64,000 nt of DNA from Escherichia phage E26. The DNA lies in the sequence record MN655998.1; one strand, written 5' to 3'. A model generated the notes under the pieces. That model was not told the DNA's origin. It ran no database searches and saw only the letters and a program-made list of their open reading frames with translations. The position numbers and the translations under genes were made by a program. This document shows, in pieces, positions 15,229 through 58,890 of the stretch. The first letter of the stretch is position 1. Each line of letters starts with the position of its first letter.

Positions 15229-15264
15229 TTGATACTCCTTAGTAGTTCGTTTCGGTATGGGTGT

Positions 15265-15293
15265 ATTATGATATACACCCTCTGTTATGTCAA
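15265..15293 (-). promoter_or_regulatory. PeSL early promoter (-35 TTGACA, -10 CATAAT, palindrome GGGTGTAT/ATACACCC)
   Basis: sigma70 hexamers with 17-nt spacing read on minus strand. Confidence 0.6.
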
Positions 15294-17973: not shown

Positions 17974-18006
17974 TTTTGATTCTCCAGTTCGTTTCGGTAT
18001 GGGTGT

Positions 18007-18035
18007 ATTATGCTATGTTCTTACTTTGGTGTCAA
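18007..18035 (-). promoter_or_regulatory. early promoter (TTGACA-17-CATAAT), no strong palindrome
   Basis: Hexamer match and spacing. Confidence 0.5.
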
Positions 18036-18313: not shown

Positions 18314-18353
18314 TGTTTGATTCTCCTAAGTGGTATCTCGTTTCGATGTGTGT

Positions 18354-18382
18354 ATTATGCTATAGGCGTGTTCTGGTGTCAA
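18354..18382 (-). promoter_or_regulatory. early promoter (TTGACA-17-CATAAT)
   Basis: Hexamer match and spacing. Confidence 0.5.
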
Positions 18383-19087: not shown

Positions 19088-19133
19088 AATTTGATTCTCC
19101 TAGTTAGAAAGTGTATCTCGTTTCGATGGGTGT

Positions 19134-19162
19134 ATTATGCTATACACCCGACCTTATGTCAA
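19134..19162 (-). promoter_or_regulatory. PeSL early promoter (TTGACA ... CATAAT, palindrome GGGTGTAT/ATACACCC)
   Basis: Same palindrome as 15265 element. Confidence 0.6.
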
Positions 19163-20651: not shown

Positions 20652-20678
20652 TTGATTCTCCGTTTGTTGTCTTGATGG

Positions 20679-20712
20679 GAGTATCTTACTACTCCCTTTA
20701 ATCATTGTCAAC
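20679..20712 (-). promoter_or_regulatory. PeSL early promoter (TTGACA, stem GGGAGTA/TACTCCC with -10 TAAGAT in loop)
   Basis: Same stem variant recurs at 31271, 58091, 58856. Confidence 0.5.
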
Positions 20713-25875: not shown

Positions 25876-26493
25876 TTATTTATATTTCGCGACCTTTGGA
25901 TTTCTCCGCAGACCGGAATGTATTTGCGCTATACAACAATAAGAAACATTAAACATATCAGCTATAATTTGCTTCTTAACTTTTCCTTTAAGCCGCATTA
26001 TTTCTTCGACTTGCGCATTTGTCAGTTTTGCCCGTGAGTGGTTTTCACCGACATTGTTATTGAGTCCAGTTCTAAATGAATGTCTCATATTTTCTAGTAA
26101 GGTTACTATTTCTAGATTCCACACATAATTGCAGGTTTTTACACCATTGATGTGATTAACCTCAAGTCCGGTAACGTCTCCTAGAAATGCATTTGCTACA
26201 AGTCGATGTATCTTTTCGGCTTTAACTGAGATTTTACCATTGTCTTTTTGTTTTGACAATGTTGAATAATAATATCCATATCGGTCTAAAATTGGTTTTA
26301 TTATTTTACCAGCACGTTTTTGTTTTACGAGCTTAATATTACCGGGAGAAACTTCTCTATAAAATTCGATACTTCGGTCAATAGATCTCAATCTACCATA
26401 ATTAGAGATTTCATACCACGGATAACCTACAGCTTGTCTCCATTCTTCCGGCGCTGGTAATACGATATTATCATCTTTTGTTTCCATTGTCAA
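25876..26493 (-). CDS. HNH homing endonuclease (NUMOD-like N-terminus)
   Basis: WYEISNYGRLRS motif; HNH core EVNHINGVKTCNYVWNLEIVTLLEN; inserted between gene 31 and cd region. Confidence 0.65.
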   Translation of the reverse strand: MTMETKDDNIVLPAPEEWRQAVGYPWYEISNYGRLRSIDRSIEFYREVSPGNIKLVKQKRAGKIIKPILDRYGYYYSTLSKQKDNGKISVKAEKIHRLVANAFLGDVTGLEVNHINGVKTCNYVWNLEIVTLLENMRHSFRTGLNNNVGENHSRAKLTNAQVEEIMRLKGKVKKQIIADMFNVSYCCIAQIHSGLRRNPKVAKYK

Positions 26494-27330: not shown

Positions 27331-27534
27331 TTAACCGTATACGCGAAAGTATTCTACTGACCCGTCGCTATACTGTTTTACATTGAATGTATTCACACCA
27401 TGATTATTTCTCATGATGACATATACACTACGACGTTCATCGCTAAACGGCATAACTGGTGCGGGTTCAATATCAACATTAAAACCACGTTTAGCAAGTG
27501 CTTCGCCCAATTTCTTGATTTTATCGGTAAACAT
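27331..27534 (-). CDS. hypothetical protein (67 aa)
   Basis: ORF track; ATG overlaps pseT stop. Confidence 0.45.
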   Translation of the reverse strand: MFTDKIKKLGEALAKRGFNVDIEPAPVMPFSDERRSVYVIMRNNHGVNTFNVKQYSDGSVEYFRVYG

Positions 27535-28433
27535 TAAAAGTCTCCGTAGTTAACCTGAAAACATTCTACACCAATTGAGCGGTACATGTCAACCACTTGA
27601 TCACGATCATCTACTGCCAACACAACATGATAACGTGGTGCAATTTCAGAGAAGAAAATCTCTTTCTTCACTTCATGATCAGGACGACGATCATTAGTTT
27701 CACGTTGAAAGTGATCACTCGGTTCAATACCCTGTTCACGCAACCATTGCAGAGTATCTTCTTCGCAAACATCCTCACGCCCTGAGCATGTAATGATACG
27801 ATAACCATTATCACGATACAGTTTAAGCATTTCGATAACTTGCGGACGCGGTTTATCTTCTTTGACCTTTGTCCAGTCAAACGGATGACGACCGCCCTTA
27901 TCCGCTAATGTTCCATCAATATCAAAGATCACTGCCTTCGGCAGCATGGTATTCGGTTTGTATACTTCTTGACCCATATATTCCTGCATCAGATAAAATT
28001 GGTTACGCAAATGAGAAAGTGGAATTGCTTTCTCGCCTCGATAGAAATTACGTTTCTTTAGTGTCTCAAATGATTCATTGAACACTTGTTCAGTATACAC
28101 CGCGTTAAATTCTTTTGCAAGTTCTTTGTAGAATACACGATGTTTTTCTTTCAGGTTGGTATCGGAGATAATGATACTCAATCCGCGTGATAGAGTCTCG
28201 CGAGCAATCATTCTCTGAATAGACTCTACCAGCTTTTCCTTTTCCTTAGTATATTTGTATTTCAAAGGTGAGTCAACACCAAACAACATAAGACGAAGAT
28301 CATCACGATTCACATTACGATAATTACTAAACCGTTTACATGTTTCCATAGCCCATGTAGTTTTACCGGACCCAGAACAACCAACGGTTAAAATCACTTC
28401 ACATTTCGGCATTATTTCTCCTTCGGTTTGCAC
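27534..28433 (-). CDS. pseT: polynucleotide 5'-kinase/3'-phosphatase
   Basis: P-loop GCSGSGKTTW; phosphatase DxDGT motif VIFDIDGTLA; C-terminal IGVECFQVNYGDF as in T4 Pnk. Confidence 0.85.
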   Translation of the reverse strand: MQTEGEIMPKCEVILTVGCSGSGKTTWAMETCKRFSNYRNVNRDDLRLMLFGVDSPLKYKYTKEKEKLVESIQRMIARETLSRGLSIIISDTNLKEKHRVFYKELAKEFNAVYTEQVFNESFETLKKRNFYRGEKAIPLSHLRNQFYLMQEYMGQEVYKPNTMLPKAVIFDIDGTLADKGGRHPFDWTKVKEDKPRPQVIEMLKLYRDNGYRIITCSGREDVCEEDTLQWLREQGIEPSDHFQRETNDRRPDHEVKKEIFFSEIAPRYHVVLAVDDRDQVVDMYRSIGVECFQVNYGDF

Positions 28434-28864: not shown

Positions 28865-29184
28865 TTAGTAGCCTCCTTTAATTCTTCGGTAAACTCCTTA
28901 AATGAGTCATTAAGCTGTTTCTCTACCAACCTGGGTTTTTGTGCTACTACATAGCCTCGTGTAGCGTCTTTCATTGCTTTGTTTTGTTCTTCTGCAAACT
29001 TAGTTCTTATTCCGTACATCTCTTTTTGCAGCGAGTCTACGACCTTCATCTTTTCATCTGTCTTTTTCTTATACTCTGTAAATTCCTGATTCAGTCGATC
29101 TACCTCCTTTTTATTTTCCCACCACATATTGCCACCGACCCCCAGCAATACAGAGATGATAACAATGTATATCAGCTTTGACAT
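28861..29184 (-). CDS. putative i-spanin-like protein (N-terminal TM + coiled coil; start at MSKLIYIV)
   Basis: TM helix IYIVIISVLLGVGG then charged helical domain. Confidence 0.35.
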   Translation of the reverse strand: MSKLIYIVIISVLLGVGGNMWWENKKEVDRLNQEFTEYKKKTDEKMKVVDSLQKEMYGIRTKFAEEQNKAMKDATRGYVVAQKPRLVEKQLNDSFKEFTEELKEATK

Positions 29185-29228
29185 ATTACCCCCAACGACA
29201 AAAGGCGGGGAACTAGCCCCGCTTATTA

Positions 29229-30398
29229 TTACCAATCAATCTTATCAGCCGGAATCAGTTTCTTATAATTCCGTAGATAGTAAGTTTTCATTGAATCCAG
29301 AATACGGTCATAATCAAGACCATCAAATGCAATCATCAGACACATGAAAATATATGCTTGTGCATCACCATGTTTACGCGATTCGATAGTCGCATTGGAT
29401 GCATATGTCTTTCTATCTTCTCCCGCGTGTGCGTTATAAAACTCTGTTGCTGTCGTAAAGGCATTGCGAAGAATAGACCTGAATGCTTCCTCGAATAGCT
29501 CGATTCGTTCCAGTGCTTCCGGTTCGCCTTCATATGCAGCACGCAAATCATCGGTTTCGCTTTCTACGACATAGTAGATCAGGTTATTAGGAAACATCGA
29601 TGTGTTTTTAATGTTATGCACACCAATATACCATTCACTCTTCACTTTGAACATTTGACCGTCTTTAGTGCGTGCAACAATTCCTTCGATGCCTTCTGCG
29701 ATCCGAACTTCATCAAGAATATTGCTAAAACGCGCTGAATCAACCTGTAACGCATTTACCAGATGAGGACGTAGGATTGCGTCCGCAAATAGCATTTGAT
29801 GCGGTACGTACTCTCCTGTGACGTTATGGCGTACATTCAGAAGTGTTAGCGACGGTTCAGAATATTCTACAACAATTCGGTTGCTGGGCGCTGTATATTC
29901 AAAGTTGAAAGTATAATCAGACCCAATATCAGCAATCTTAGCGCGTAGATCCGCATACTTCTCTGAATACAGAAGACCGTTTGCTCTCTCTGCCTGGCTT
30001 GAGTACAAGGCCGCTTTAGACTTCAACTGAACATAGCCGTTATCAATGTATGTGCTTACTAGACTACCGTCCATTTTGTCCATGACCATTTCCACATCTT
30101 CCGGCTTAAAGCGAGCGCGATCATTCTCACCCAAATTAAAAAACTTCTCCATAGGACGAGATGCGATGCGGACCGGACGACCTTTATCGTCAATTTCAAA
30201 CATGATCCCGCGACACTCTAACGCATCTGGTTTATTCCACATTTCAGGTTTGCTCAAGTACATATAGCTAAAAATGCGCATACGGGTTTGCATCGCCGTA
30301 ATTTCATCTTTGTAATAGAACGTATCAGATCCGTCACACAGTGCCATAAGATTTTTGAACAATGCTAAAACTTTTTTGTTGTTTTCTTTTGTTGACAT
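29229..30398 (-). CDS. rnlA: RNA ligase 1
   Basis: 389 aa; YxIFSY, ECRGIMFE, VRIASRPMEKFFNL, KEDGSLVSTY (ligase KxDG) and EGIV motifs as in T4 Rnl1. Confidence 0.8.
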   Translation of the reverse strand: MSTKENNKKVLALFKNLMALCDGSDTFYYKDEITAMQTRMRIFSYMYLSKPEMWNKPDALECRGIMFEIDDKGRPVRIASRPMEKFFNLGENDRARFKPEDVEMVMDKMDGSLVSTYIDNGYVQLKSKAALYSSQAERANGLLYSEKYADLRAKIADIGSDYTFNFEYTAPSNRIVVEYSEPSLTLLNVRHNVTGEYVPHQMLFADAILRPHLVNALQVDSARFSNILDEVRIAEGIEGIVARTKDGQMFKVKSEWYIGVHNIKNTSMFPNNLIYYVVESETDDLRAAYEGEPEALERIELFEEAFRSILRNAFTTATEFYNAHAGEDRKTYASNATIESRKHGDAQAYIFMCLMIAFDGLDYDRILDSMKTYYLRNYKKLIPADKIDW

Positions 30399-30795
30399 AA
30401 TTTGTGTTCCATTCTGGTTTAAATTTGGTGATCAAAACAGGTTCTTCGATATCGGCAGTGCTTATAATATCCTTACCCGTTGGATTCTCGATGTACAACT
30501 CAAAGCACTGGCGGTAATAGAATGTTACTGTCTTACCTTCCTCTAGCGCCTTATGAATATTCTTACTCTTGCGAGTATCCGCTGTTGGTGTTTGTCTGTT
30601 AATGCTAGTCCGGTAATAATTGATCCGCTTTCTGAGATTGACAGTCTGACCAATATATACCAGTTCATCATCAACCGCAATAGCGTAAAGAACATTTAAA
30701 CGGTTCTTCTGAGGCGGCAGAATCACATCACCATCTTTACACTCTAAACATGAATATTTAACGAATCCATAGTTTTCTATTAGCTCATTAATCAT
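30334..30795 (-). CDS. denA: endonuclease II (GIY-YIG)
   Basis: VLYAIAVDDELVYIGQTVNLRKRINYYRT near-identical to T4 EndoII core. Confidence 0.8.
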   Translation of the reverse strand: MINELIENYGFVKYSCLECKDGDVILPPQKNRLNVLYAIAVDDELVYIGQTVNLRKRINYYRTSINRQTPTADTRKSKNIHKALEEGKTVTFYYRQCFELYIENPTGKDIISTADIEEPVLITKFKPEWNTNYVNKRKQQKSFSIVQKSYGTV

Positions 30796-30845
30796 TATCC
30801 TTTCCTCACGTCACAACAAAGGCGGGATTTCTCCCGCCCACCTTA

Positions 30846-31244
30846 TTAACTTTCCAGAATATCGCGAGCTTCGTTACGCTCCTTGATGATTTTCAGGACA
30901 AATTCCAGTTTTTCTTTGTTCAGCGTTCCATTTTCCATTGCTTCTTTGACGGTAAACACTCCGCCACCTTGCCCGTATACAGTGACAGTGATTTCACCTA
31001 ACATCGTGGTATGAAAACCGCCAATTTTCGGTGATTCGAAAGAAACAATTACCTCGCGGACAGTATTACCGTCGTTGATTTCTGAGAGGGTAATGTCGTT
31101 TTTGTAGGCGGTTGCTTTAACCATACGGATCAGCATAGTCTGATCTGGGGAGATGGTCATTTTGTCCATTGCATGTTGCAATGCAGCGTAACCGAAAACT
31201 TTAACGAAGTCCAGAACGTCTTTGCGAGTTTGAAATTTAATCAT
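30846..31244 (-). CDS. hypothetical protein (132 aa)
   Basis: ORF track; RBS AAGGAG. Confidence 0.45.
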   Translation of the reverse strand: MIKFQTRKDVLDFVKVFGYAALQHAMDKMTISPDQTMLIRMVKATAYKNDITLSEINDGNTVREVIVSFESPKIGGFHTTMLGEITVTVYGQGGGVFTVKEAMENGTLNKEKLEFVLKIIKERNEARDILES

Positions 31245-31270
31245 CTTGATACTCCTTAGTTGTTTTGGTA

Positions 31271-31306
31271 TGGGAGTATCTTACTACTCCCGTGATATGC
31301 TGTCAA
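31271..31306 (-). promoter_or_regulatory. PeSL early promoter (TTGACA, stem GGGAGTA/TACTCCC)
   Basis: As 20679 element. Confidence 0.5.
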
Positions 31307-31314
31307 CTGCTTTT

Positions 31315-31464
31315 TTATGCAACCGCAAACATCAACATTTGAACATTCTTGGCTGTCTGGCTTTCAAAGTTCTGACATTCTTTGATAATGTCCTCTACTT
31401 TCTCGCCGGAGATCTCCGCGTAAGTTTCGATTGCCATTTTCAGTACCGCGTCAAAGTTGTTCAT
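31315..31464 (-). CDS. hypothetical small protein (49 aa)
   Basis: Hand-translated MNNFDAVLKMAIETYAEISGEK...; RBS AAGGAGAAT. Confidence 0.35.
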   Translation of the reverse strand: MNNFDAVLKMAIETYAEISGEKVEDIIKECQNFESQTAKNVQMLMFAVA

Positions 31465-31500
31465 TTGATTCTCCTTAAAGTGTATTTCGTTTCGATGGGG

Positions 31501-31531
31501 GTATATTACTACCCCCGTTATTCAGTGTCAA
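31501..31531 (-). promoter_or_regulatory. PeSL early promoter (TTGACA, stem GGGGGTA/TACCCCC)
   Basis: Hexamer plus palindrome. Confidence 0.5.
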
Positions 31532-31750
31532 CTACTTTTTAATGACAAGTTCGAATTTTGCTACCTTGCGTCCTCGTTTATTGAAAGCAACCCACGGACG
31601 GTTTTCAATGTAGAACAATTCTTCGCCAATAATGAATACTGGCTGATTGTAAAGGCGACCCATCAGGTCACGCTGGCGAATGGTAGTAGATTCGTATACT
31701 TCTCCTACTACAAAGTGCTTGCTGATAGAGTCGGTGCAAGTAAATTTCAT
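31532..31750 (-). CDS. hypothetical protein (72 aa; start at MKFTCTD)
   Basis: ORF-track entry starts at TTG that is the -35 TTGACA of the upstream promoter; ATG with RBS AAGGAGAAT is the likely start. Confidence 0.45.
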   Translation of the reverse strand: MKFTCTDSISKHFVVGEVYESTTIRQRDLMGRLYNQPVFIIGEELFYIENRPWVAFNKRGRKVAKFELVIKK

Positions 31751-31780
31751 TTTGATTCTCCTTTGTTTTCTTGATGGGAG

Positions 31781-31810
31781 TATTATGCAATACCCCCTAA
31801 TGTGTGTCAA
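31781..31810 (-). promoter_or_regulatory. PeSL early promoter (TTGACA ... CATAAT)
   Basis: Hexamers with partial palindrome. Confidence 0.5.
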
Positions 31811-31974
31811 CTGCCTTTTTGAAAGTTTTCTGCTTTTCTTAGGTGAAATTTCGAGGAATAAAATTTAAAGTCTTCCTCTTTCACGATACTAATTGACGTT
31901 GCAAGGTTTTCGTCCCAATGGTTGATGATATAGAGATTTCCTTCCGCTCTAAAATACCAACGTTGTGCTTTCAT
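31807..31974 (-). CDS. hypothetical small protein (55 aa)
   Basis: Hand-translated MKAQRWYFRAEGNLYIINHWDE...; RBS AAGAGGTGA. Confidence 0.4.
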   Translation of the reverse strand: MKAQRWYFRAEGNLYIINHWDENLATSISIVKEEDFKFYSSKFHLRKAENFQKGS

Positions 31975-31983
31975 GTTCACCTC

Positions 31984-32151
31984 TTAGCTAAACCAGATTT
32001 TACCATCGTTAGATACTTCGCAGATCAGGCGATTGCGCCATGTGCAGAAGTAAACACGTCCGAATTTACCTTCACCTGCATCGTGCTCGAAAGTAACGCC
32101 TTTGTTTTTCTTAGCCATGTTGCAAGCCTGACGATAAGTTAAAGTTTTCAT
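31984..32151 (-). CDS. hypothetical small protein (55 aa)
   Basis: Hand-translated MKTLTYRQACNMAKKNKGVTFEHD...; RBS AAGGAGAAT. Confidence 0.4.
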   Translation of the reverse strand: MKTLTYRQACNMAKKNKGVTFEHDAGEGKFGRVYFCTWRNRLICEVSNDGKIWFS

Positions 32152-32180
32152 TTGATTCTCCTTAAAGTGTGTTTCGATGG

Positions 32181-32213
32181 GTGCATTATGCTATACCCCG
32201 ATCCGATTGTCAA
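32181..32213 (-). promoter_or_regulatory. PeSL early promoter (TTGACA ... CATAAT)
   Basis: Hexamers ~17 nt apart. Confidence 0.5.
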
Positions 32214-32260
32214 CACCCAATAACAAAAAAGTCGCCACTATGGGCGACTTTGAACAAACA

Positions 32261-32737
32261 TTAATCATGACCGTGATTTGCAATATCCGCGCGTGTCTTA
32301 TCTTTGTGGTTCCCTACATCAAAGACACGATAGCCGTTTTCTCTGAGAACTTTAATCACTTCTGGGTTATCCTCAAAGACTCCCACTACTTCATCTTTAT
32401 CAAAGGATTTAATTACCTCTAATTTGATGTGATAGTCTTTACGGGAATCGGTACGGCCTCTCATAAAGATTTTATCAAAACACACCCCGTTAGAAATTAA
32501 CCAATCAATTGTTTCCATGTAAGCATGTGAACTTCGTCCGGTGAGGATGTAAATCAAATGCCCGTTGTCGGAAAGAGCATTAATAACACGAATTACATCG
32601 TAAATGGGGGAATCTCCCCCACATGCCTTGTTATATTCGATCCATGACTCTACTTTATCAAGATTTTCGGTTGGCATCTTTGCTAGTCGATGTGTTGGAT
32701 CTGTGATCGTAAAATCTAAATCAACAAAATATATCAT
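32261..32737 (-). CDS. HAD-superfamily phosphatase / nucleotidase-like protein
   Basis: N-terminal DLDFTIT (HAD motif I DxDxT), 158 aa; sits next to nrdB. Confidence 0.5.
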   Translation of the reverse strand: MIYFVDLDFTITDPTHRLAKMPTENLDKVESWIEYNKACGGDSPIYDVIRVINALSDNGHLIYILTGRSSHAYMETIDWLISNGVCFDKIFMRGRTDSRKDYHIKLEVIKSFDKDEVVGVFEDNPEVIKVLRENGYRVFDVGNHKDKTRADIANHGHD

Positions 32738-33894
32738 AGATATTTCCCGAATCGGTTGTAGTCATCGTCTGTTAAATCGGTATTAACCTGAGATACCAGA
32801 TACATGATCTCTACTTCTTGCGCCGCGTTTTGAACTTCGTCAGAGTTCAACCATTTACGCATCCACGGTAAAGGATGACGACGAACACTAAACGGGCTTT
32901 TCAGTCCGGCAGCACGCATACGGGAATCTGCCAGGTATTCTACATAGGTTTTCAGAATTTCCGGTGACAGGTTAGGAATTGCCCCCATTGCGAATAGGTG
33001 GTCTACCCATTCTTTTTCTTGCTCGACAACATCCAGAAAGATTTTCGTTGCTTCGCCTTCAAGTTCTTCCGCAATCTGTTTCCACTCATCACCATCAACC
33101 CCCGTTTGCCATTGACGAATAATGTATTGTGTGCCTTTTAAGTGAAGTTGTTCATCACGCGCAATAAATTTCATGATCTTCGCGTTACCTTCCAGTAAAC
33201 CACGTTCGGCAAAGCTGAAAGTACATGCAAAGGACACATAAAAACGAATTGCTTCCAAAGCATTAACGCAGTGTGCACACAGATAAATCGAAGCCATCAG
33301 ATCTCGTTTTGTATCTTCAAAAAATCTTCTTGCATCATCTAATGCTGCCTGGTCGTCTCGTTCTTCCCAATAGCGGAGATCTTCTTTTGCATTCTCATAC
33401 TTACGAATCCAATAAAGAACATCATCATAATATTTCCCGATAGATTCCGCTCGCTTCATGATAGCAGGGTTATCGATGATCTGGTCGAACTCACTAGCCG
33501 GATCAATAAAACAGTTACGCATAATGTGAGTATAACTGCGGCTATGAATCGTTTCGCTGAATGTCCATGTTTGTAACCATGTATCGAGAGTTGGATCAGA
33601 TACAATTGGACCAAATGCTGCGGACGGTGCGCGACCTTGAATAGAATCAAGTAATGTCTGATACTTCAAGTTTTCGGTAAAGAAACGCTTTTCAACGTCA
33701 CCCATATTAAGATATTGAATGCGGTCGGTTGCAAGTGAAATCTCTTCTGGACGCCAGAAAAATGACAATTGCTTTTCGATTAGTTCTTCAAATACTTGAT
33801 GACGCTGAATATCATAGCGAGCGATACCCAACCCACTACCCAGAAACATCGGTTCGTTCATAATATCAACATGTTCGCGGTTAAATACGCTCAT
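32734..33894 (-). CDS. nrdB: ribonucleotide reductase small (beta) subunit
   Basis: 386 aa; ferritin-like di-iron motifs (ExxH), C-terminal acidic tail. Confidence 0.9.
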   Translation of the reverse strand: MSVFNREHVDIMNEPMFLGSGLGIARYDIQRHQVFEELIEKQLSFFWRPEEISLATDRIQYLNMGDVEKRFFTENLKYQTLLDSIQGRAPSAAFGPIVSDPTLDTWLQTWTFSETIHSRSYTHIMRNCFIDPASEFDQIIDNPAIMKRAESIGKYYDDVLYWIRKYENAKEDLRYWEERDDQAALDDARRFFEDTKRDLMASIYLCAHCVNALEAIRFYVSFACTFSFAERGLLEGNAKIMKFIARDEQLHLKGTQYIIRQWQTGVDGDEWKQIAEELEGEATKIFLDVVEQEKEWVDHLFAMGAIPNLSPEILKTYVEYLADSRMRAAGLKSPFSVRRHPLPWMRKWLNSDEVQNAAQEVEIMYLVSQVNTDLTDDDYNRFGKYL

Positions 33895-33909
33895 TAATTC
33901 ACCTCACTA

Positions 33910-34077
33910 TCACTTTTTAACACAAAAGAACTTAGTATTTCTGTTTATTTCGCTATCCTGTTGTAGTTCCCGCAAAGCCTCAAAACAACTTTGATGAGAT
34001 GTAAACTCTACACCAGTGACCGTGCCTTTATTATACACACCAACACTAACGGAAAGCAATAACCATATTGTAGCCAT
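33910..34077 (-). CDS. small hydrophobic-N-terminus peptide, tandem paralog a (55 aa)
   Basis: MATIWLLLSVSVGVYNKG...FFCVKK; TAATG overlap with paralog b. Confidence 0.4.
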   Translation of the reverse strand: MATIWLLLSVSVGVYNKGTVTGVEFTSHQSCFEALRELQQDSEINRNTKFFCVKK

Positions 34078-34250
34078 TAGTTCACCTTCTGCTTTTCAAC
34101 ACAGTACAGATTCATAAAGCGTTTATTGTCTTCGCGGATAATCTCGCGAGCTTTAACGCAATCCTGCTTTGTGGAAAATTCAATGCTTGACATATTTCCG
34201 TAATTATACATTGAATTGCTTATTGCAATCAATAACCATACAGTAGCCAT
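34077..34250 (-). CDS. small hydrophobic-N-terminus peptide, tandem paralog b (57 aa)
   Basis: MATVWLLIAISNSMYNYG...LYCVEK; paralog of previous. Confidence 0.4.
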   Translation of the reverse strand: MATVWLLIAISNSMYNYGNMSSIEFSTKQDCVKAREIIREDNKRFMNLYCVEKQKVN

Positions 34251-34417
34251 TATCCGACAACCTCAAAACATTTATCATCAGGAAGAATAGCCCATTCTAC
34301 GCCGTATTCATCCTTAACGTAGTAGCAAGTCCCATCATGTCGAGCATCATATTCATCACCGACAACAAAGCTATCAGCTAGCTCAAAATCTACCGCAACA
34401 CATTTTAATTTTGCCAT
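34250..34417 (-). CDS. hypothetical protein (55 aa; start at MAKLKCV)
   Basis: ORF-track N-terminus reads through the promoter; internal ATG is the likely start. Confidence 0.4.
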   Translation of the reverse strand: MAKLKCVAVDFELADSFVVGDEYDARHDGTCYYVKDEYGVEWAILPDDKCFEVVG

Positions 34418-34448
34418 AATAAAATCCTCATTTGTTTTTGATGGTTGA

Positions 34449-34477
34449 ATTATAGCGGGGATTTCTCCCCGCGTCAA
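34449..34477 (-). promoter_or_regulatory. PeSL early promoter (TTGACG - CGGGGAGAAATCCCCGC - TATAAT)
   Basis: Hexamers plus palindrome, immediately downstream of nrdA. Confidence 0.55.
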
Positions 34478-34485
34478 CACTTATT

Positions 34486-36729
34486 TTACAGCTTGCAAGA
34501 TGAGCACTCGCTAGCGTCTTCCGTACCATCTGCACCATCACGCACGTTAGCGTAATACAGTGTCTTGAGGCCGTAATATTGAGCAAACAACATATCATCT
34601 AATACATCAGCAATATCGACTTTACCAGTCTTATAAGTGCTTGGATCGTAGGATGTGTTGGAACTAATCGCCTGATCTACAAACTTCTGCATGATCGCTG
34701 CCAGTGTCAGATAAGGCTTGTTACCTTTCTTGATCAGTGTCCAAAGCAGGTCAATAACATCAGCATTATTCTCTACGTTCGGAATAACCTGATTAAATTG
34801 CCCTTCTTTCGATCCTTTAACCGATACAATCCCGCGAGGCGGTTCAATACCGTTTGTGCTGTTAGACACCTGAGAAGACGACTCACAAGGCATCAGAGCC
34901 GAAAGCGTACTGTTACGAATGCCATATTTTTTCAGGTCTTCGCGCAGTTCTTCCCAATCCATCTCATACACCGGATCAACCAGTTCATCTACTGTCTTTT
35001 TGTACCAGTCAATAGGAAGTTCACCGCGACCATAACGTGTTTCGTGCATCAGTTCGCAAGCGCCCTTCTCTTTAGCCAGTTGCACACTAGCTTTAATCAG
35101 AGCATATTGCAAGCGTTCAAACGTTTTATGCGTAAACTCGTTAGCGTCTTCATATGTGAAGAAATTATCCGCAAGATATGATGCAAAGTTAGTCACGCCA
35201 ACACCCAGAGAGCGACGTTTTTTGGCTGTCAGAGCTTGTTCTACTGGATAATCCTGGTAATCTAACAAGTTGTCAAGCGCACGCACCATAACCATAGCAA
35301 TGCGTTCTACTTCTTCCATGTTTTCGATATCGAAATTACCTAAAACATATGCTGCCAAAGTGCATAGACTGATCTCTGAATCATCACGACCCATCGGTTT
35401 TGTCGGCAGAGCAATTTCACAACACAGGTTAGATTGTTTAATCGGTGCTACATTACGAATAAACGCCCCGTGATTGTTCATGTTGTCTGTGAACGCTGGA
35501 TAGATTCGACCAGTGTTAAAACGTTCAATTGCCACCGCTAAAAACAGGTCTTCGGCTTTAACACGAGTTTTACGAACACTCGGATCTTTTTCCAGTTTTT
35601 CGTAAAGCTGACGGAATCCTTCCTCATCTCGGAAGTACAGATCCCACAACAAGCCACCCGCAACATCTGGACTAAACAGAGTAATGTAATCCCGTTTAAG
35701 GAATCGCTCTACCATCAGGTTATTAATCTGTACGCCGTAATCAAGATGACGAATGCGGTTATCTTCTACCCCTTTGTTGTTCTTCAACACAATAAGACTT
35801 TCAAACTCTAAATGCCACATTGGGTAATAGAGAGTCGCCGCTCCGCCACGAATACCGCCTTGCGAGCATGACTTAACAGCAGTCTGAAAATGTTTCCAGA
35901 ATGGGATAACGCCAGTATGACGAACTTCACCATGTCCGATCTTAGATCCTTCCGCGCGAATCATACCAGCATTGATACCGATACCAGCACGCTTACTAAT
36001 ATACTTGATGATTGCATTTGCTGTTTCATTGATGCCCTGCAATGAGTCATCACTTTCAATCACCACACACGAACTAAATTGTCGTGTTGGAGTACGCACA
36101 CCCGCCATAATCGGAGTAGGCAGAGAAATTTGCTTATTCGCAACAGCATTATAAAAATCAATCACATGTTCAAGTCGATTTTCTGTCTCTTCTTGATGTA
36201 AGCACATACCGATCAGCATATAAGCAAATTGCGGTGTTTCAATGATTTTCTTAGTGCTGCGATCCTGAACAAGATATTTCTCTTTTAACTGCATCGCACC
36301 AGCGTAGGTCATTTTAAAATCAAGTTTATGATCGATGAATTTCTCCAGATATTCCACTTCTTCACGGGAATACTTTTGCAGAATTTCGCGATCATATTTT
36401 CCGGTTGCAATATTACGCTCAATATGGCTATAAAAATCAATCGGTTGGAATTGACCGTATACTGATTTACGAAGCGCGAACATTGCAAGGTTACTTGCTA
36501 CATATTGATAATCAGGTGTTTCTACAGTAATGTTATCTGCGGCGACCTTAATCAATACTTTCTGGATATCATTGGTAGACATACCTTCTGTCAGAAGTGG
36601 TTCAACCATATCAAACAATTCATATGGATCAACGTTATGACCTTCGGCTGCCGCTTCCAGAATTTTCATTACTTTTTCTTTTTCAAACGGAACAGTCAGA
36701 CCGGAAGACTTAACAACATTTTTAATCAT
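34486..36729 (-). CDS. nrdA: ribonucleotide reductase large (alpha) subunit
   Basis: 747 aa; N-terminal ATP-cone, catalytic Cys motifs, C-terminal CxxC tail. Confidence 0.9.
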   Translation of the reverse strand: MIKNVVKSSGLTVPFEKEKVMKILEAAAEGHNVDPYELFDMVEPLLTEGMSTNDIQKVLIKVAADNITVETPDYQYVASNLAMFALRKSVYGQFQPIDFYSHIERNIATGKYDREILQKYSREEVEYLEKFIDHKLDFKMTYAGAMQLKEKYLVQDRSTKKIIETPQFAYMLIGMCLHQEETENRLEHVIDFYNAVANKQISLPTPIMAGVRTPTRQFSSCVVIESDDSLQGINETANAIIKYISKRAGIGINAGMIRAEGSKIGHGEVRHTGVIPFWKHFQTAVKSCSQGGIRGGAATLYYPMWHLEFESLIVLKNNKGVEDNRIRHLDYGVQINNLMVERFLKRDYITLFSPDVAGGLLWDLYFRDEEGFRQLYEKLEKDPSVRKTRVKAEDLFLAVAIERFNTGRIYPAFTDNMNNHGAFIRNVAPIKQSNLCCEIALPTKPMGRDDSEISLCTLAAYVLGNFDIENMEEVERIAMVMVRALDNLLDYQDYPVEQALTAKKRRSLGVGVTNFASYLADNFFTYEDANEFTHKTFERLQYALIKASVQLAKEKGACELMHETRYGRGELPIDWYKKTVDELVDPVYEMDWEELREDLKKYGIRNSTLSALMPCESSSQVSNSTNGIEPPRGIVSVKGSKEGQFNQVIPNVENNADVIDLLWTLIKKGNKPYLTLAAIMQKFVDQAISSNTSYDPSTYKTGKVDIADVLDDMLFAQYYGLKTLYYANVRDGADGTEDASECSSCKL

Positions 36730-58062: not shown

Positions 58063-58090
58063 AATATATTCCTCAATGTTTTTCTTGATG

Positions 58091-58124
58091 GGAGTATCTT
58101 ACTACTCCCTTAATCCGGTGTCAA
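58091..58124 (-). promoter_or_regulatory. PeSL early promoter (TTGACA, stem GGGAGTA/TACTCCC)
   Basis: As 20679 element. Confidence 0.5.
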
Positions 58125-58832: not shown

Positions 58833-58855
58833 GTGATTCTCCTTTCGTCTGGTAT

Positions 58856-58890
58856 GGGAGTATATTACTACTCCCGTTTCTTTACGTCAA
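58856..58890 (-). promoter_or_regulatory. PeSL early promoter (TTGACG, stem GGGAGTA/TACTCCC)
   Basis: As 20679 element. Confidence 0.5.

Follow-up and report, generated by a model that had tools for sequence, protein, structure and literature searches.

A Pnkp-type phosphatase gene and four PeSL cassette units between nrdB and denA of the RB49-like coliphage E26

In phage T4, the genes denA and nrdB are adjacent, since the former ends at position 137951 and the latter starts at position 137955, with only 3 bp between them. In Escherichia phage E26 (sequence record MN655998.1), the same two genes enclose five small ORFs and the gene of a 158-aa protein, which raises the question of what this insertion is made of and what the protein might do. 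The original prediction, made without database searches from a stretch of 64,000 nucleotides (the window), had described PeSL mini-cassettes, four promoters with five small ORFs, and a HAD-family protein with the motif I sequence DLDFTIT, at a site where T4 has its two genes side by side. All of these elements were recovered in the present analysis: four alignable units of ~75 bp, ORFs of 55, 55, 72, 49, and 132 aa, and the HAD protein, at the coordinates given. With a probability of about 60%, we interpret the gap between nrdB and denA as a small hyperplastic region, consisting of a free-standing Pnkp-type phosphatase gene and four PeSL cassette units that serve as recombination points.

Layout of the nrdB–denA locus

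The source of the sequence is an RB49-like Krischvirus, a T4-type coliphage with ~97% identity to the phages ELT4 and vB_EcoM_011D4 (97.4% over the full length of the region). All the genes at the locus are on the minus strand, and in the direction of that strand their order is nrdB, the HAD gene, an intrinsic terminator, four PeSL units with their small ORFs, a second terminator, and denA. The gene nrdB (ribonucleotide reductase small subunit; 32734–33894; Pfam Ribonuc_red_sm, 1.3e-43; phrog_86, 1.1e-148) is the upstream gene of a transcription unit whose last gene is that of the HAD phosphatase (32261–32737, minus strand; 158 aa, a homolog of RB49 ORF229c). The ATG of the latter overlaps the nrdB stop codon (ATGA), coupling its translation to that of nrdB, and the unit is closed by a predicted intrinsic terminator, a 9-bp hairpin followed by a T run (32228–32251, minus strand), situated in the AT-rich 5′ portion of PeSL 1. 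Because of this overlap and of the terminator that follows the gene, the phosphatase is probably expressed from the nrd transcript.

On the other side, the insertion is limited by denA (endonuclease II, GIY-YIG; 30334–30795, minus strand; phrog_1111, 1.9e-52; Pfam GIY-YIG), upstream of which a GC-rich, terminator-like hairpin of 8 bp (30820–30839, minus strand; fold −20.6 kcal/mol, z −3.7) closes the cassette array. Also flanking the locus is rnlA (29229–30398, minus strand), and the same phage carries a full-length PseT (Pnkp) with an intact phosphatase domain (27534–28412, minus strand). No match to Rfam was found at positions 29000–35000, nor any G+C anomaly indicating a recent foreign insertion.

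The locus is already known. Synteny with RB49, which had been proposed as a check, was confirmed: the same gap carries RB49 ORF225c–229c, and it has been sequenced in ~58 phages (58 records match the region), in several of which the HAD gene is labelled “3′-phosphatase”. RB49 and phi1 (ORF225–229) belong to the same genus, share with E26 the HAD, 132-aa, 49-aa, and 72-aa genes at the same nrdB–denA site, and are 96%–98% identical to the locus at the DNA level. They differ in having a 72-aa ORF228 where E26 has two unrelated 55-aa ORFs, an allele already deposited in GenBank for ELT4 and vB_EcoM_011D4.

Both 55-aa ORFs (31984–32151 and 31807–31974, minus strand) are within a 351-bp cassette and matched no family; the second one begins with the ATG at 31974, or would comprise 57 aa if read from the GTG at 31980. 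The 72-aa ORF (31532–31750, minus strand; phrog_14957, 5.5e-54) is a homolog of RB49 ORF227c; it was also considered as a relative of RB49 ORF228 or of the small ORF upstream of nrdB, and on comparison it was unrelated to either. The 49-aa ORF (31315–31464, minus strand; phrog_21179, 2.4e-39) and the 132-aa ORF (30846–31244, minus strand; phrog_10173, 1.8e-69) are homologous to RB49 ORF226c and ORF225c, respectively. None of the five small ORFs matched Pfam or NCBIfam. The 132-aa ORF is present with at least 95% identity in 58 phage records and has homologs of 32%–38% identity in jumbo phages, with no meaningful match in the PDB; its AF2 model was unusable (pLDDT 50), as its alignment was limited to near-identical homologs.

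PeSL units and cassette exchange

Four sigma-70-like promoters were predicted on the minus strand of the gap, all with the −35 box TTGACA and a 17-nt spacer, agreeing with the consensus at 10–11 of 12 positions and preceded by A/T runs; their −10 boxes are CATAAT (in two of them), TAATAT, or TAAGAT. Each promoter is part of an alignable unit of ~75 bp, composed of an AT-rich tract, GTTGACA, a G-rich/C-rich stem–loop over the −10 box, and AAGGAG. The first unit (32155–32222; −35 box at 32213–32208, −10 box CATAAT at 32190–32185) would drive both 55-aa ORFs, the second (31751–31819; −35 box starting at 31810) the 72-aa ORF, the third (31465–31540; −35 box starting at 31531) the 49-aa ORF, and the fourth (31245–31315; −35 box starting at 31306) the 132-aa ORF. 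Hairpins of 9, 7 (GGGGGTA/TACCCCC), and 7 bp were predicted over the −10 boxes of units 2, 3, and 4, respectively, while that of unit 1 is weaker and is preceded by the 9-bp terminator hairpin of the HAD gene. The energy z-scores of the whole segments were modest (−1.6 to −2.7). A pattern derived from the four units had 11 matches in the 64-kb window, four of them by construction, all on the minus strand, and none in 100 shuffles.

The definition of PeSLs comes from RB49 and phi1, for which a shuffling of cassettes based on these elements was also proposed (Arbiol et al. 2010, PMC2839356), and both promoter and terminator activities were measured for other PeSLs of these two phages (PMC2839356). 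The units of E26 have the same composite motif (AT-rich tract, −35 box, stem–loop over the −10 box, and Shine–Dalgarno sequence); they are intergenic, located upstream of ORFans in a variable region, and bound the one exchange that was mapped. Each of them would combine a strong early sigma-70 promoter with a stem–loop over its −10 box and with a ribosome-binding site, for the expression of one or two tiny ORFs.

The comparison with RB49 and phi1 allowed one exchange to be mapped. Similarity to these phages is lost within the AT-rich tract of PeSL 2, at 31819, and resumes at 32171–32181, just 3′ of the −10 box of PeSL 1; the replaced 351 bp were found only in E26, ELT4, and vB_EcoM_011D4. Both breakpoints of this single exchange are therefore inside PeSLs, which fits the published shuffling model. 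The ORF content of the gap also varies among other relatives (JSE, ELT3, and kaaroe): the 49-aa cassette is missing from JSE and ELT3 is short of one cassette, and from the spacing of the ORFs it seems that entire cassettes were gained or lost, the breakpoints having been mapped only for the exchange relative to RB49 and phi1. It is conceivable that the four repeats are nothing else than ordinary early promoters, alike because of the promoter consensus and not as recombination modules, given that conservation among them is highest at the −35 box, in the −10 region, and at the Shine–Dalgarno sequence. However, the G-rich and C-rich arms of the hairpin and a CCCAT after the −10 box, which a promoter does not need, are conserved as well, and both the position of the mapped breakpoints and the varying content of the gap point away from this explanation, which we consider quite improbable. 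Recombination between the repeated PeSL units would instead provide for the gain, loss, and swap of cassettes.

For the annotation of the genome little is gained, as RB49, phi1, and JSE had already provided the same information; the addition is one further clean cassette exchange with its breakpoints within PeSLs.

A free-standing phosphatase of the Pnkp type

Judged by its sequence, the 158-aa protein is homologous to the phosphatase portion of Pnkp/PseT. It matched HAD_PNKP (Pfam PF25109) at 2.9e-13 (50.6 bits, above the curated cutoff of 27.6) and phrog_415 at 2.9e-51, and has 29% identity (E = 6e-11) to the phosphatase domain of the PseT encoded by its own phage. Motif I (DxDxT) corresponds to residues 6–12, DLDFTIT (D6-L-D8-F-T10). 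According to the original prediction, an absence of the second and third HAD motifs would have spoken against its reading of the protein; these two and motif IV were recovered in the alignment as well as in a confidently predicted structure, motif II being T66 in ILTGR (aligned with T4 Pnkp S211), motif III K105 (aligned with K258), and motif IV the acidic pair E122-D123 (aligned with D277-D278, so that ED replaces the DD of T4 PseT). Thirteen residues of T4 Pnkp are shared by the aligned HAD protein (D165, D167, T169, R176, D187, R213, R246, D250, R252, D254, K258, E260, and D278), and the substitutions are S211 to T and D277 to E. Outside the four HAD motifs, the residues R17, R68, and D101, typical of the Pnkp family, align with T4 R176, R213, and D254; these three and D277 were reportedly found by mutagenesis in the Shuman laboratory to be essential in the phosphatase of T4 Pnkp.

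With the HAD protein as query, a word-indexed search returned only three protein matches, and its homologs were obtained by exhaustive search. All 108 of the free-standing relatives compared have R93 and K105, and at least 90% of them share D6, D8, T10, R17, D42, R68, D97, and D123. The AF2 model (pLDDT 92.9) has the Rossmann-like alpha/beta core of the HAD superfamily. By homology with T4 Pnkp, in which the roles of D165, D167, S211, K258, and D278 are described (PMC3592404), the protein would be a Mg2+-dependent DxDxT acylphosphatase, with D6 forming the aspartyl-phosphate intermediate, D8 acting as general acid/base, T66 and K105 holding the phosphate, and D123 holding the metal. That it is an inert or regulatory remnant of Pnkp, or else a phosphatase acting on proteins (at Ser/Thr/Tyr) like those of the Fcp1/SCP/MDP-1 type, seems highly improbable: every catalytic position is retained and conserved over more than 100 diverged homologs, which argues against an inert protein, and protein phosphatase folds scored far below Pnkp.

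Compared with the phosphatase domain of T4 PseT (aa 148–301; PDB 1ltq, 5uj0), to which identity is 21%–23%, the HAD protein has a two-helix insertion after motif I (residues 14–45, in both the alignment and the AF2 model) and a C-terminal tail of 16 residues modeled with low confidence. The insertion could narrow the active site toward small substrates. The N-terminal P-loop 5′-kinase domain is absent, since the protein starts at motif I, and for the same reason the GenBank label “polynucleotide kinase” is wrong as far as the kinase is concerned. Nor is there a kinase adjacent to the gene, unlike the situation of the Pnkp1 of Capnocytophaga gingivalis (PDB 4xrp), a 312-aa kinase-phosphatase within the ligase/methyltransferase complex Pnkp1-Rnl-Hen1 of RNA repair. 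A PNKP-type HAD phosphatase without a fused kinase has precedents in yeast Tpp1 and plant ZDP, stand-alone DNA 3′-phosphatases that heal DNA 3′ ends, whose relationship to the phage protein, if any, would be at the level of the superfamily only.

Outside Krischvirus, the closest relatives are free-standing phosphatases of T1-like phages (Drexlerviridae), which align with the E26 protein from end to end, C-terminal tail included, at 33%–47% identity, are of the same size, and share the insertion after motif I. Their labels are “kinase-phosphatase”, “polynucleotide kinase”, or “acid phosphatase”.

Gene neighborhoods and candidate targets

Most likely, the enzyme would strip 3′-phosphates from nucleic acid ends or from 3′-nucleotides, and it may open 2′,3′-cyclic phosphates too; at its presumed targets in vivo, the resulting 3′-OH ends would be usable by ligases, polymerases, and 3′-exonucleases. 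Next to the intact PseT of the same phage, a second 3′-phosphatase looks redundant, and yet it is retained with at least 95% identity in all 58 related phage records. Our literature search found no paper characterizing any free-standing phage phosphatase of the Pnkp type, nor a HAD anti-defense enzyme of this type; a paper on a “conserved phage phosphoesterase” was discarded as a precedent, the enzyme being a metallophosphoesterase.

The free-standing family comprises 4,539 clusters at 50% identity, with matches in 1,475 phage genomes. Its gene neighborhoods were surveyed in 34 nonredundant clusters from 80 IMG/VR loci, by comparison with PHROGs and Pfam and by tblastn with RnlA, PseT kinase, dNMP-kinase-like, NrdA/B, and Cd queries. 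An Rnl1-type ligase was found at a distance of up to 4 kb in only four of the 34 clusters, and the neighborhoods do not single out either RNA or DNA end repair. Because the contexts are heterogeneous, the survey does not decide the function.

Some of these contexts bear on a different substrate, already proposed in the original prediction, namely, free nucleotides (5′- or 3′-dNMP/NMP), whose dephosphorylation together with ribonucleotide reductase would tune the deoxynucleotide pool. The translational coupling to nrdB agrees with such a role, as do single clusters in which thymidylate synthase (ThyA or ThyX) or dATP/dGTP pyrophosphohydrolase adjoins the homolog, and T4 Pnkp itself cleaves 3′-dTMP in vitro (PMC3592404). 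Moreover, a P-loop kinase gene of phrog_139, “deoxynucleoside monophosphate kinase” (5.5e-48; 20 of the 80 loci), comes after the phosphatase gene in T1-like phages, and in many of these loci its start codon overlaps or abuts the stop codon of the latter; the E26 gene, by contrast, follows nrdB. This kinase association, however, is confined to two of the 34 sequence clusters, both T1-like; in pairwise comparison the kinase resembles T4 gp1 at the P-loop region only, and could equally be the 5′-kinase half of a split Pnkp. The P-loop neighbor in phage Sanco likewise had, by pairwise BLAST, only the P-loop in common with both T4 PNK and T4 gp1. Pnkp phosphatase domains are clearly the top match in sequence and in fold, and a 5′-dNMP phosphatase would counteract the phage's own supply of dNTPs. 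Position alone does not discriminate, since nrdB, rnlA, and pseT are all within 5 kb. Overall, we find a role in the nucleotide pool possible but rather doubtful, and prefer the removal of 3′-phosphates.

A broader and still unlikely proposal is that the free-standing Pnkp-type phosphatases form a distinct class of enzymes with their own task and are not spare parts of RNA repair, which would explain why a second copy is kept beside an intact PseT in all 58 records. Candidate jobs for such a class would be an action on nucleotide pools, with a dNMP-kinase-like partner or ribonucleotide reductase, or the destruction of 3′-phosphorylated or 2′,3′-cyclic nucleotides produced by host nucleases or defense systems.

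The phosphatase is the one point of interest of this locus, as its family is found very widely among phages and is routinely mislabelled “polynucleotide kinase”. It coexists with a complete PseT in one genome, and may be either a redundant end-healing enzyme or one with a different target.

Gene order between nrdB and denA

Every gene in this part of the window is coded on the minus strand. After nrdA (34486-36729) come three small ORFs, then nrdB (32734-33894), an ORF for a 158-aa protein (32261-32737), and a hairpin with a T run (32251-32228). Between this hairpin and a GC-rich one (30839-30820) lies an array of four promoter units and five small ORFs; the GC-rich hairpin separates it from denA (30334-30795), and rnlA (29229-30398) follows, with homologs of pseT.3 and pseT.2 and a full-length pseT (27534-28412) downstream of it. 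The interval of the original prediction, 30846-32737, is bounded exactly by the stop of the 132-aa ORF and the start codon of the 158-aa ORF. In T4, where denA and nrdB had been said to adjoin, the first ends at 137951 and the second starts at 137955; compared with T4, the 1.9 kb found here is thus additional.

The locus is already known. The region 30300-33000 matched 58 phage records, all within or near the genus Krischvirus (RB49, phi1, JSE, and relatives), with 97.4% identity over its full length to phage ELT4 and Escherichia phage vB_EcoM_011D4, and the nrdB-denA gap of RB49 and phi1 likewise holds ORF225-229. The G+C content across the gap is flat (0.37-0.45) and thus bears no mark of recent foreign insertion. 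No Rfam family matched the gap region.

Three other features of the surrounding minus strand were observed. In its longest form, the rnlA ORF shares 65 bp with denA (30334-30398), and since the rnlA start is inconsistent between GenBank records (1119 versus 1170 bp), the true start is probably a downstream ATG. Between nrdA and nrdB (33910-34250), a tandem duplication within the nrd operon has left two adjacent paralogous ORFs (55 and 57 aa; 36% identity, E 1e-15); their shared N-terminus, MAT(I/V)WLL, makes small membrane or secreted proteins the probable products. Finally, an HNH-like motif (EVNHINGVKTCN), read from the translation only, suggests a homing endonuclease insertion at 25876-26493, where a 205-aa ORF is flanked by a small gene 31 (GroES-like)-type ORF and by the 31.1/cd block.

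PeSL units and cassette exchange

The four promoters and five small ORFs were confirmed by a consensus scan and by the ORF positions. The TTGACA boxes start at 32213, 31810, 31531, and 31306 (PeSL 1 to 4, in transcription order), each with a 17-nt spacer and 10-11 of the 12 consensus positions. All four sit in repeats alignable over about 75 bp. In each, an A/T-rich tract precedes GTTGACA; the -10 box has a G-rich arm on its 5' side and, on its 3' side, a C-rich arm that ends in CCCAT, after which AAGGAG lies 6-8 nt upstream of a start codon. Predicted hairpins of 7-9 bp straddle the -10 in PeSL 2-4; PeSL 1 has a weaker hairpin, and its AT-rich part holds the 9-bp terminator hairpin of the upstream gene. 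This layout agrees with the promoter-early stem-loops described in phi1 and RB49, which carry 52 and 51 copies, respectively, most commonly with the stem-loop between the boxes or over the -10, and in which promoter and terminator activity was tested (PMC2839356); the PeSL label was therefore right. A search pattern was built from the four units, which match it by construction. In the window it had 11 matches, every one of them on the minus strand; 100 shuffles produced no hit. The observation at this locus was accurate and far above chance expectation. The seven additional PeSL-type sites (15257-15293, 17999-18035, 18346-18382, 19126-19162, 20675-20711, 58088-58124, and 58854-58890, minus strand) mark other variable regions of the window.

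Similarity to RB49 and phi1 breaks off within the AT-rich tract of PeSL 2 (31819) and returns immediately 3' of the PeSL 1 -10 (32171-32181). The intervening 351 bp encode both 55-aa ORFs; in RB49 and phi1 this slot is taken by ORF228, which is unrelated and encodes 72 aa. Among 50,697 phage records, only ELT4 and vB_EcoM_011D4 matched the 351-bp segment. Breakpoints were mapped for the window against RB49 and phi1. Other relatives vary in ORF content: the 49-aa cassette is missing from JSE, ELT3 carries one cassette fewer, and kaaroe is arranged like RB49. The exchange agrees with the published model, in which PeSL-PeSL recombination gains, loses, or swaps ORFan cassettes, and is a clean additional example of a mechanism already known.

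As for the cassette products, PHROGs has families for the 132-, 49-, and 72-aa ORFs, all of unknown function, and the two 55-aa ORFs had no family match in Pfam, NCBIfam, or PHROGs. Homologs of the 132-aa protein (30846-31244, RB49 ORF225c) with 32-38% identity are carried by jumbo phages of about 350 kb from Escherichia, Erwinia, Salmonella, and Klebsiella (Turkey3, G17, pEa_SNUABM_47, PHA46, and RCIP0023) and by Acinetobacter phage ABPH49. An NDGN motif is invariant among them, and the structure model (pLDDT 50) gave no confident fold.

A predicted free-standing Pnkp-type phosphatase

The gene of the 158-aa protein does not belong to the PeSL cassettes. It begins with an ATG that overlaps the stop codon of nrdB (CTATGATA) and is followed by the hairpin and T run, making it the last gene of the nrdB transcription unit. 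Both this gene and the 132-aa ORF occur in 58 phage records at no less than 95% identity, the same count as for the region DNA.

Residues 6-12 of the protein are DLDFTIT, and Pfam assigned it to HAD_PNKP (2.9e-13, 50.6 bits against a cutoff of 27.6), with Acid_phosphat_B just under its cutoff (26.4 against 27). The phosphatase domain of the phage's own PseT is 29% identical (E 6e-11). In the alignment with T4 PseT, identical residues (T4/158-aa) are D165/D6, D167/D8, T169/T10, R176/R17, D187/D42, R213/R68, R246/R93, D250/D97, R252/R99, D254/D101, K258/K105, E260/E107, and D278/D123, with conservative changes at S211/T66 and D277/E122. In the T4 enzyme, the phosphoryl group is accepted by D165, which together with D278 also ligates Mg2+; D167 serves as general acid/base, and S211 and K258 make contact with the phosphate (PMC3592404). 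R93 and K105 are invariant among 108 free-standing relatives, and at least 90% of these retain D6, D8, T10, R17, D42, R68, D97, and D123. With motifs II and III both present (T66, K105), the HAD assignment stands, and from its sequence the protein can be placed more sharply, as a predicted free-standing Pnkp-type 3'-phosphatase domain. The AlphaFold model, with the 108 relatives as input alignment, reached a pLDDT of 92.9, and Foldseek ranked Pnkp phosphatase above protein-phosphatase folds. Unlike T4 Pnkp, the protein carries two extra helices inserted behind motif I (residues 14-45), an ED pair in motif IV where T4 has DD, and a 16-residue low-confidence C-terminal tail, common to T1-like homologs.

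Several GenBank records label the gene "3'-phosphatase" or "polynucleotide kinase/phosphatase", and its PHROGs (phrog_415, 2.9e-51; phrog_505, 7.1e-20) are both labelled "polynucleotide kinase". A kinase identity was rejected, since the protein starts at motif I, without a P-loop.

Substrate and gene neighborhoods

By homology with T4 Pnkp, which acts on RNA 3'-phosphate ends, 2',3'-cyclic phosphate ends, and 3'-dTMP (PMC3592404), the enzyme would catalyze Mg2+-dependent phosphomonoester hydrolysis via an aspartyl-phosphate on D6, most likely on the 3'-phosphate of a nucleic-acid end or on a 3'-nucleotide. We put at about 0.6 the probability that its role is end healing or, more broadly, 3'-phosphate removal, while action on free nucleotides, reshaping nucleotide pools as originally proposed, seems rather unlikely. 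The position of the gene, which has nrdB upstream and rnlA and pseT downstream, does not discriminate between these roles. The phosphatase site of the phage's own PseT is intact, so the free-standing gene does not stand in for a defective one.

The family comprises 4,539 clusters at 50% identity, most members being free-standing and 140-170 aa long, and tblastn found matches in 1,475 phage genomes. The nearest relatives outside Krischvirus (33-47% identity) are in T1-like Drexlerviridae, where the phosphatase gene is followed by a P-loop kinase gene (Klebsiella phage Sanco, L006 3989-5055; L005 3941-6157; also L010, L012-L017, L020-L021, L024-L025, L033, and L043), stop and start overlapping or abutting in many loci. 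The partner kinase (184-193 aa) matches phrog_139, "deoxynucleoside monophosphate kinase" (5.5e-48); its pairwise similarity to T4 gp1 and to the T4 PNK kinase domain is confined to the P-loop region. Either a split Pnkp with the domain order reversed or a phosphatase/dNMP-kinase combination could account for the pair.

When the phosphatases of 80 IMG/VR loci were reduced to 34 groups at 60% identity, an Rnl1-type RNA ligase lay within 4 kb in four groups and the phrog_139 kinase was found in two. ThyA, ThyX, a dATP/dGTP pyrophosphohydrolase, an AAA_33 kinase, and a cyclic-phosphate-processing receiver domain appeared once each, and exonucleases or helicases adjoin the phosphatase in many groups. 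Such mixed neighbors point to general early DNA/RNA metabolism and do not separate end healing from nucleotide-pool work. On one metagenomic viral contig (L073 2837-5619), the phosphatase lies between a 381-aa ORF and a 383-aa Rnl1-type RNA ligase, possibly an RNA-repair cassette that lacks a kinase fusion. Our literature search found no published characterization of this widespread, mislabelled family of free-standing Pnkp-type phage phosphatases.
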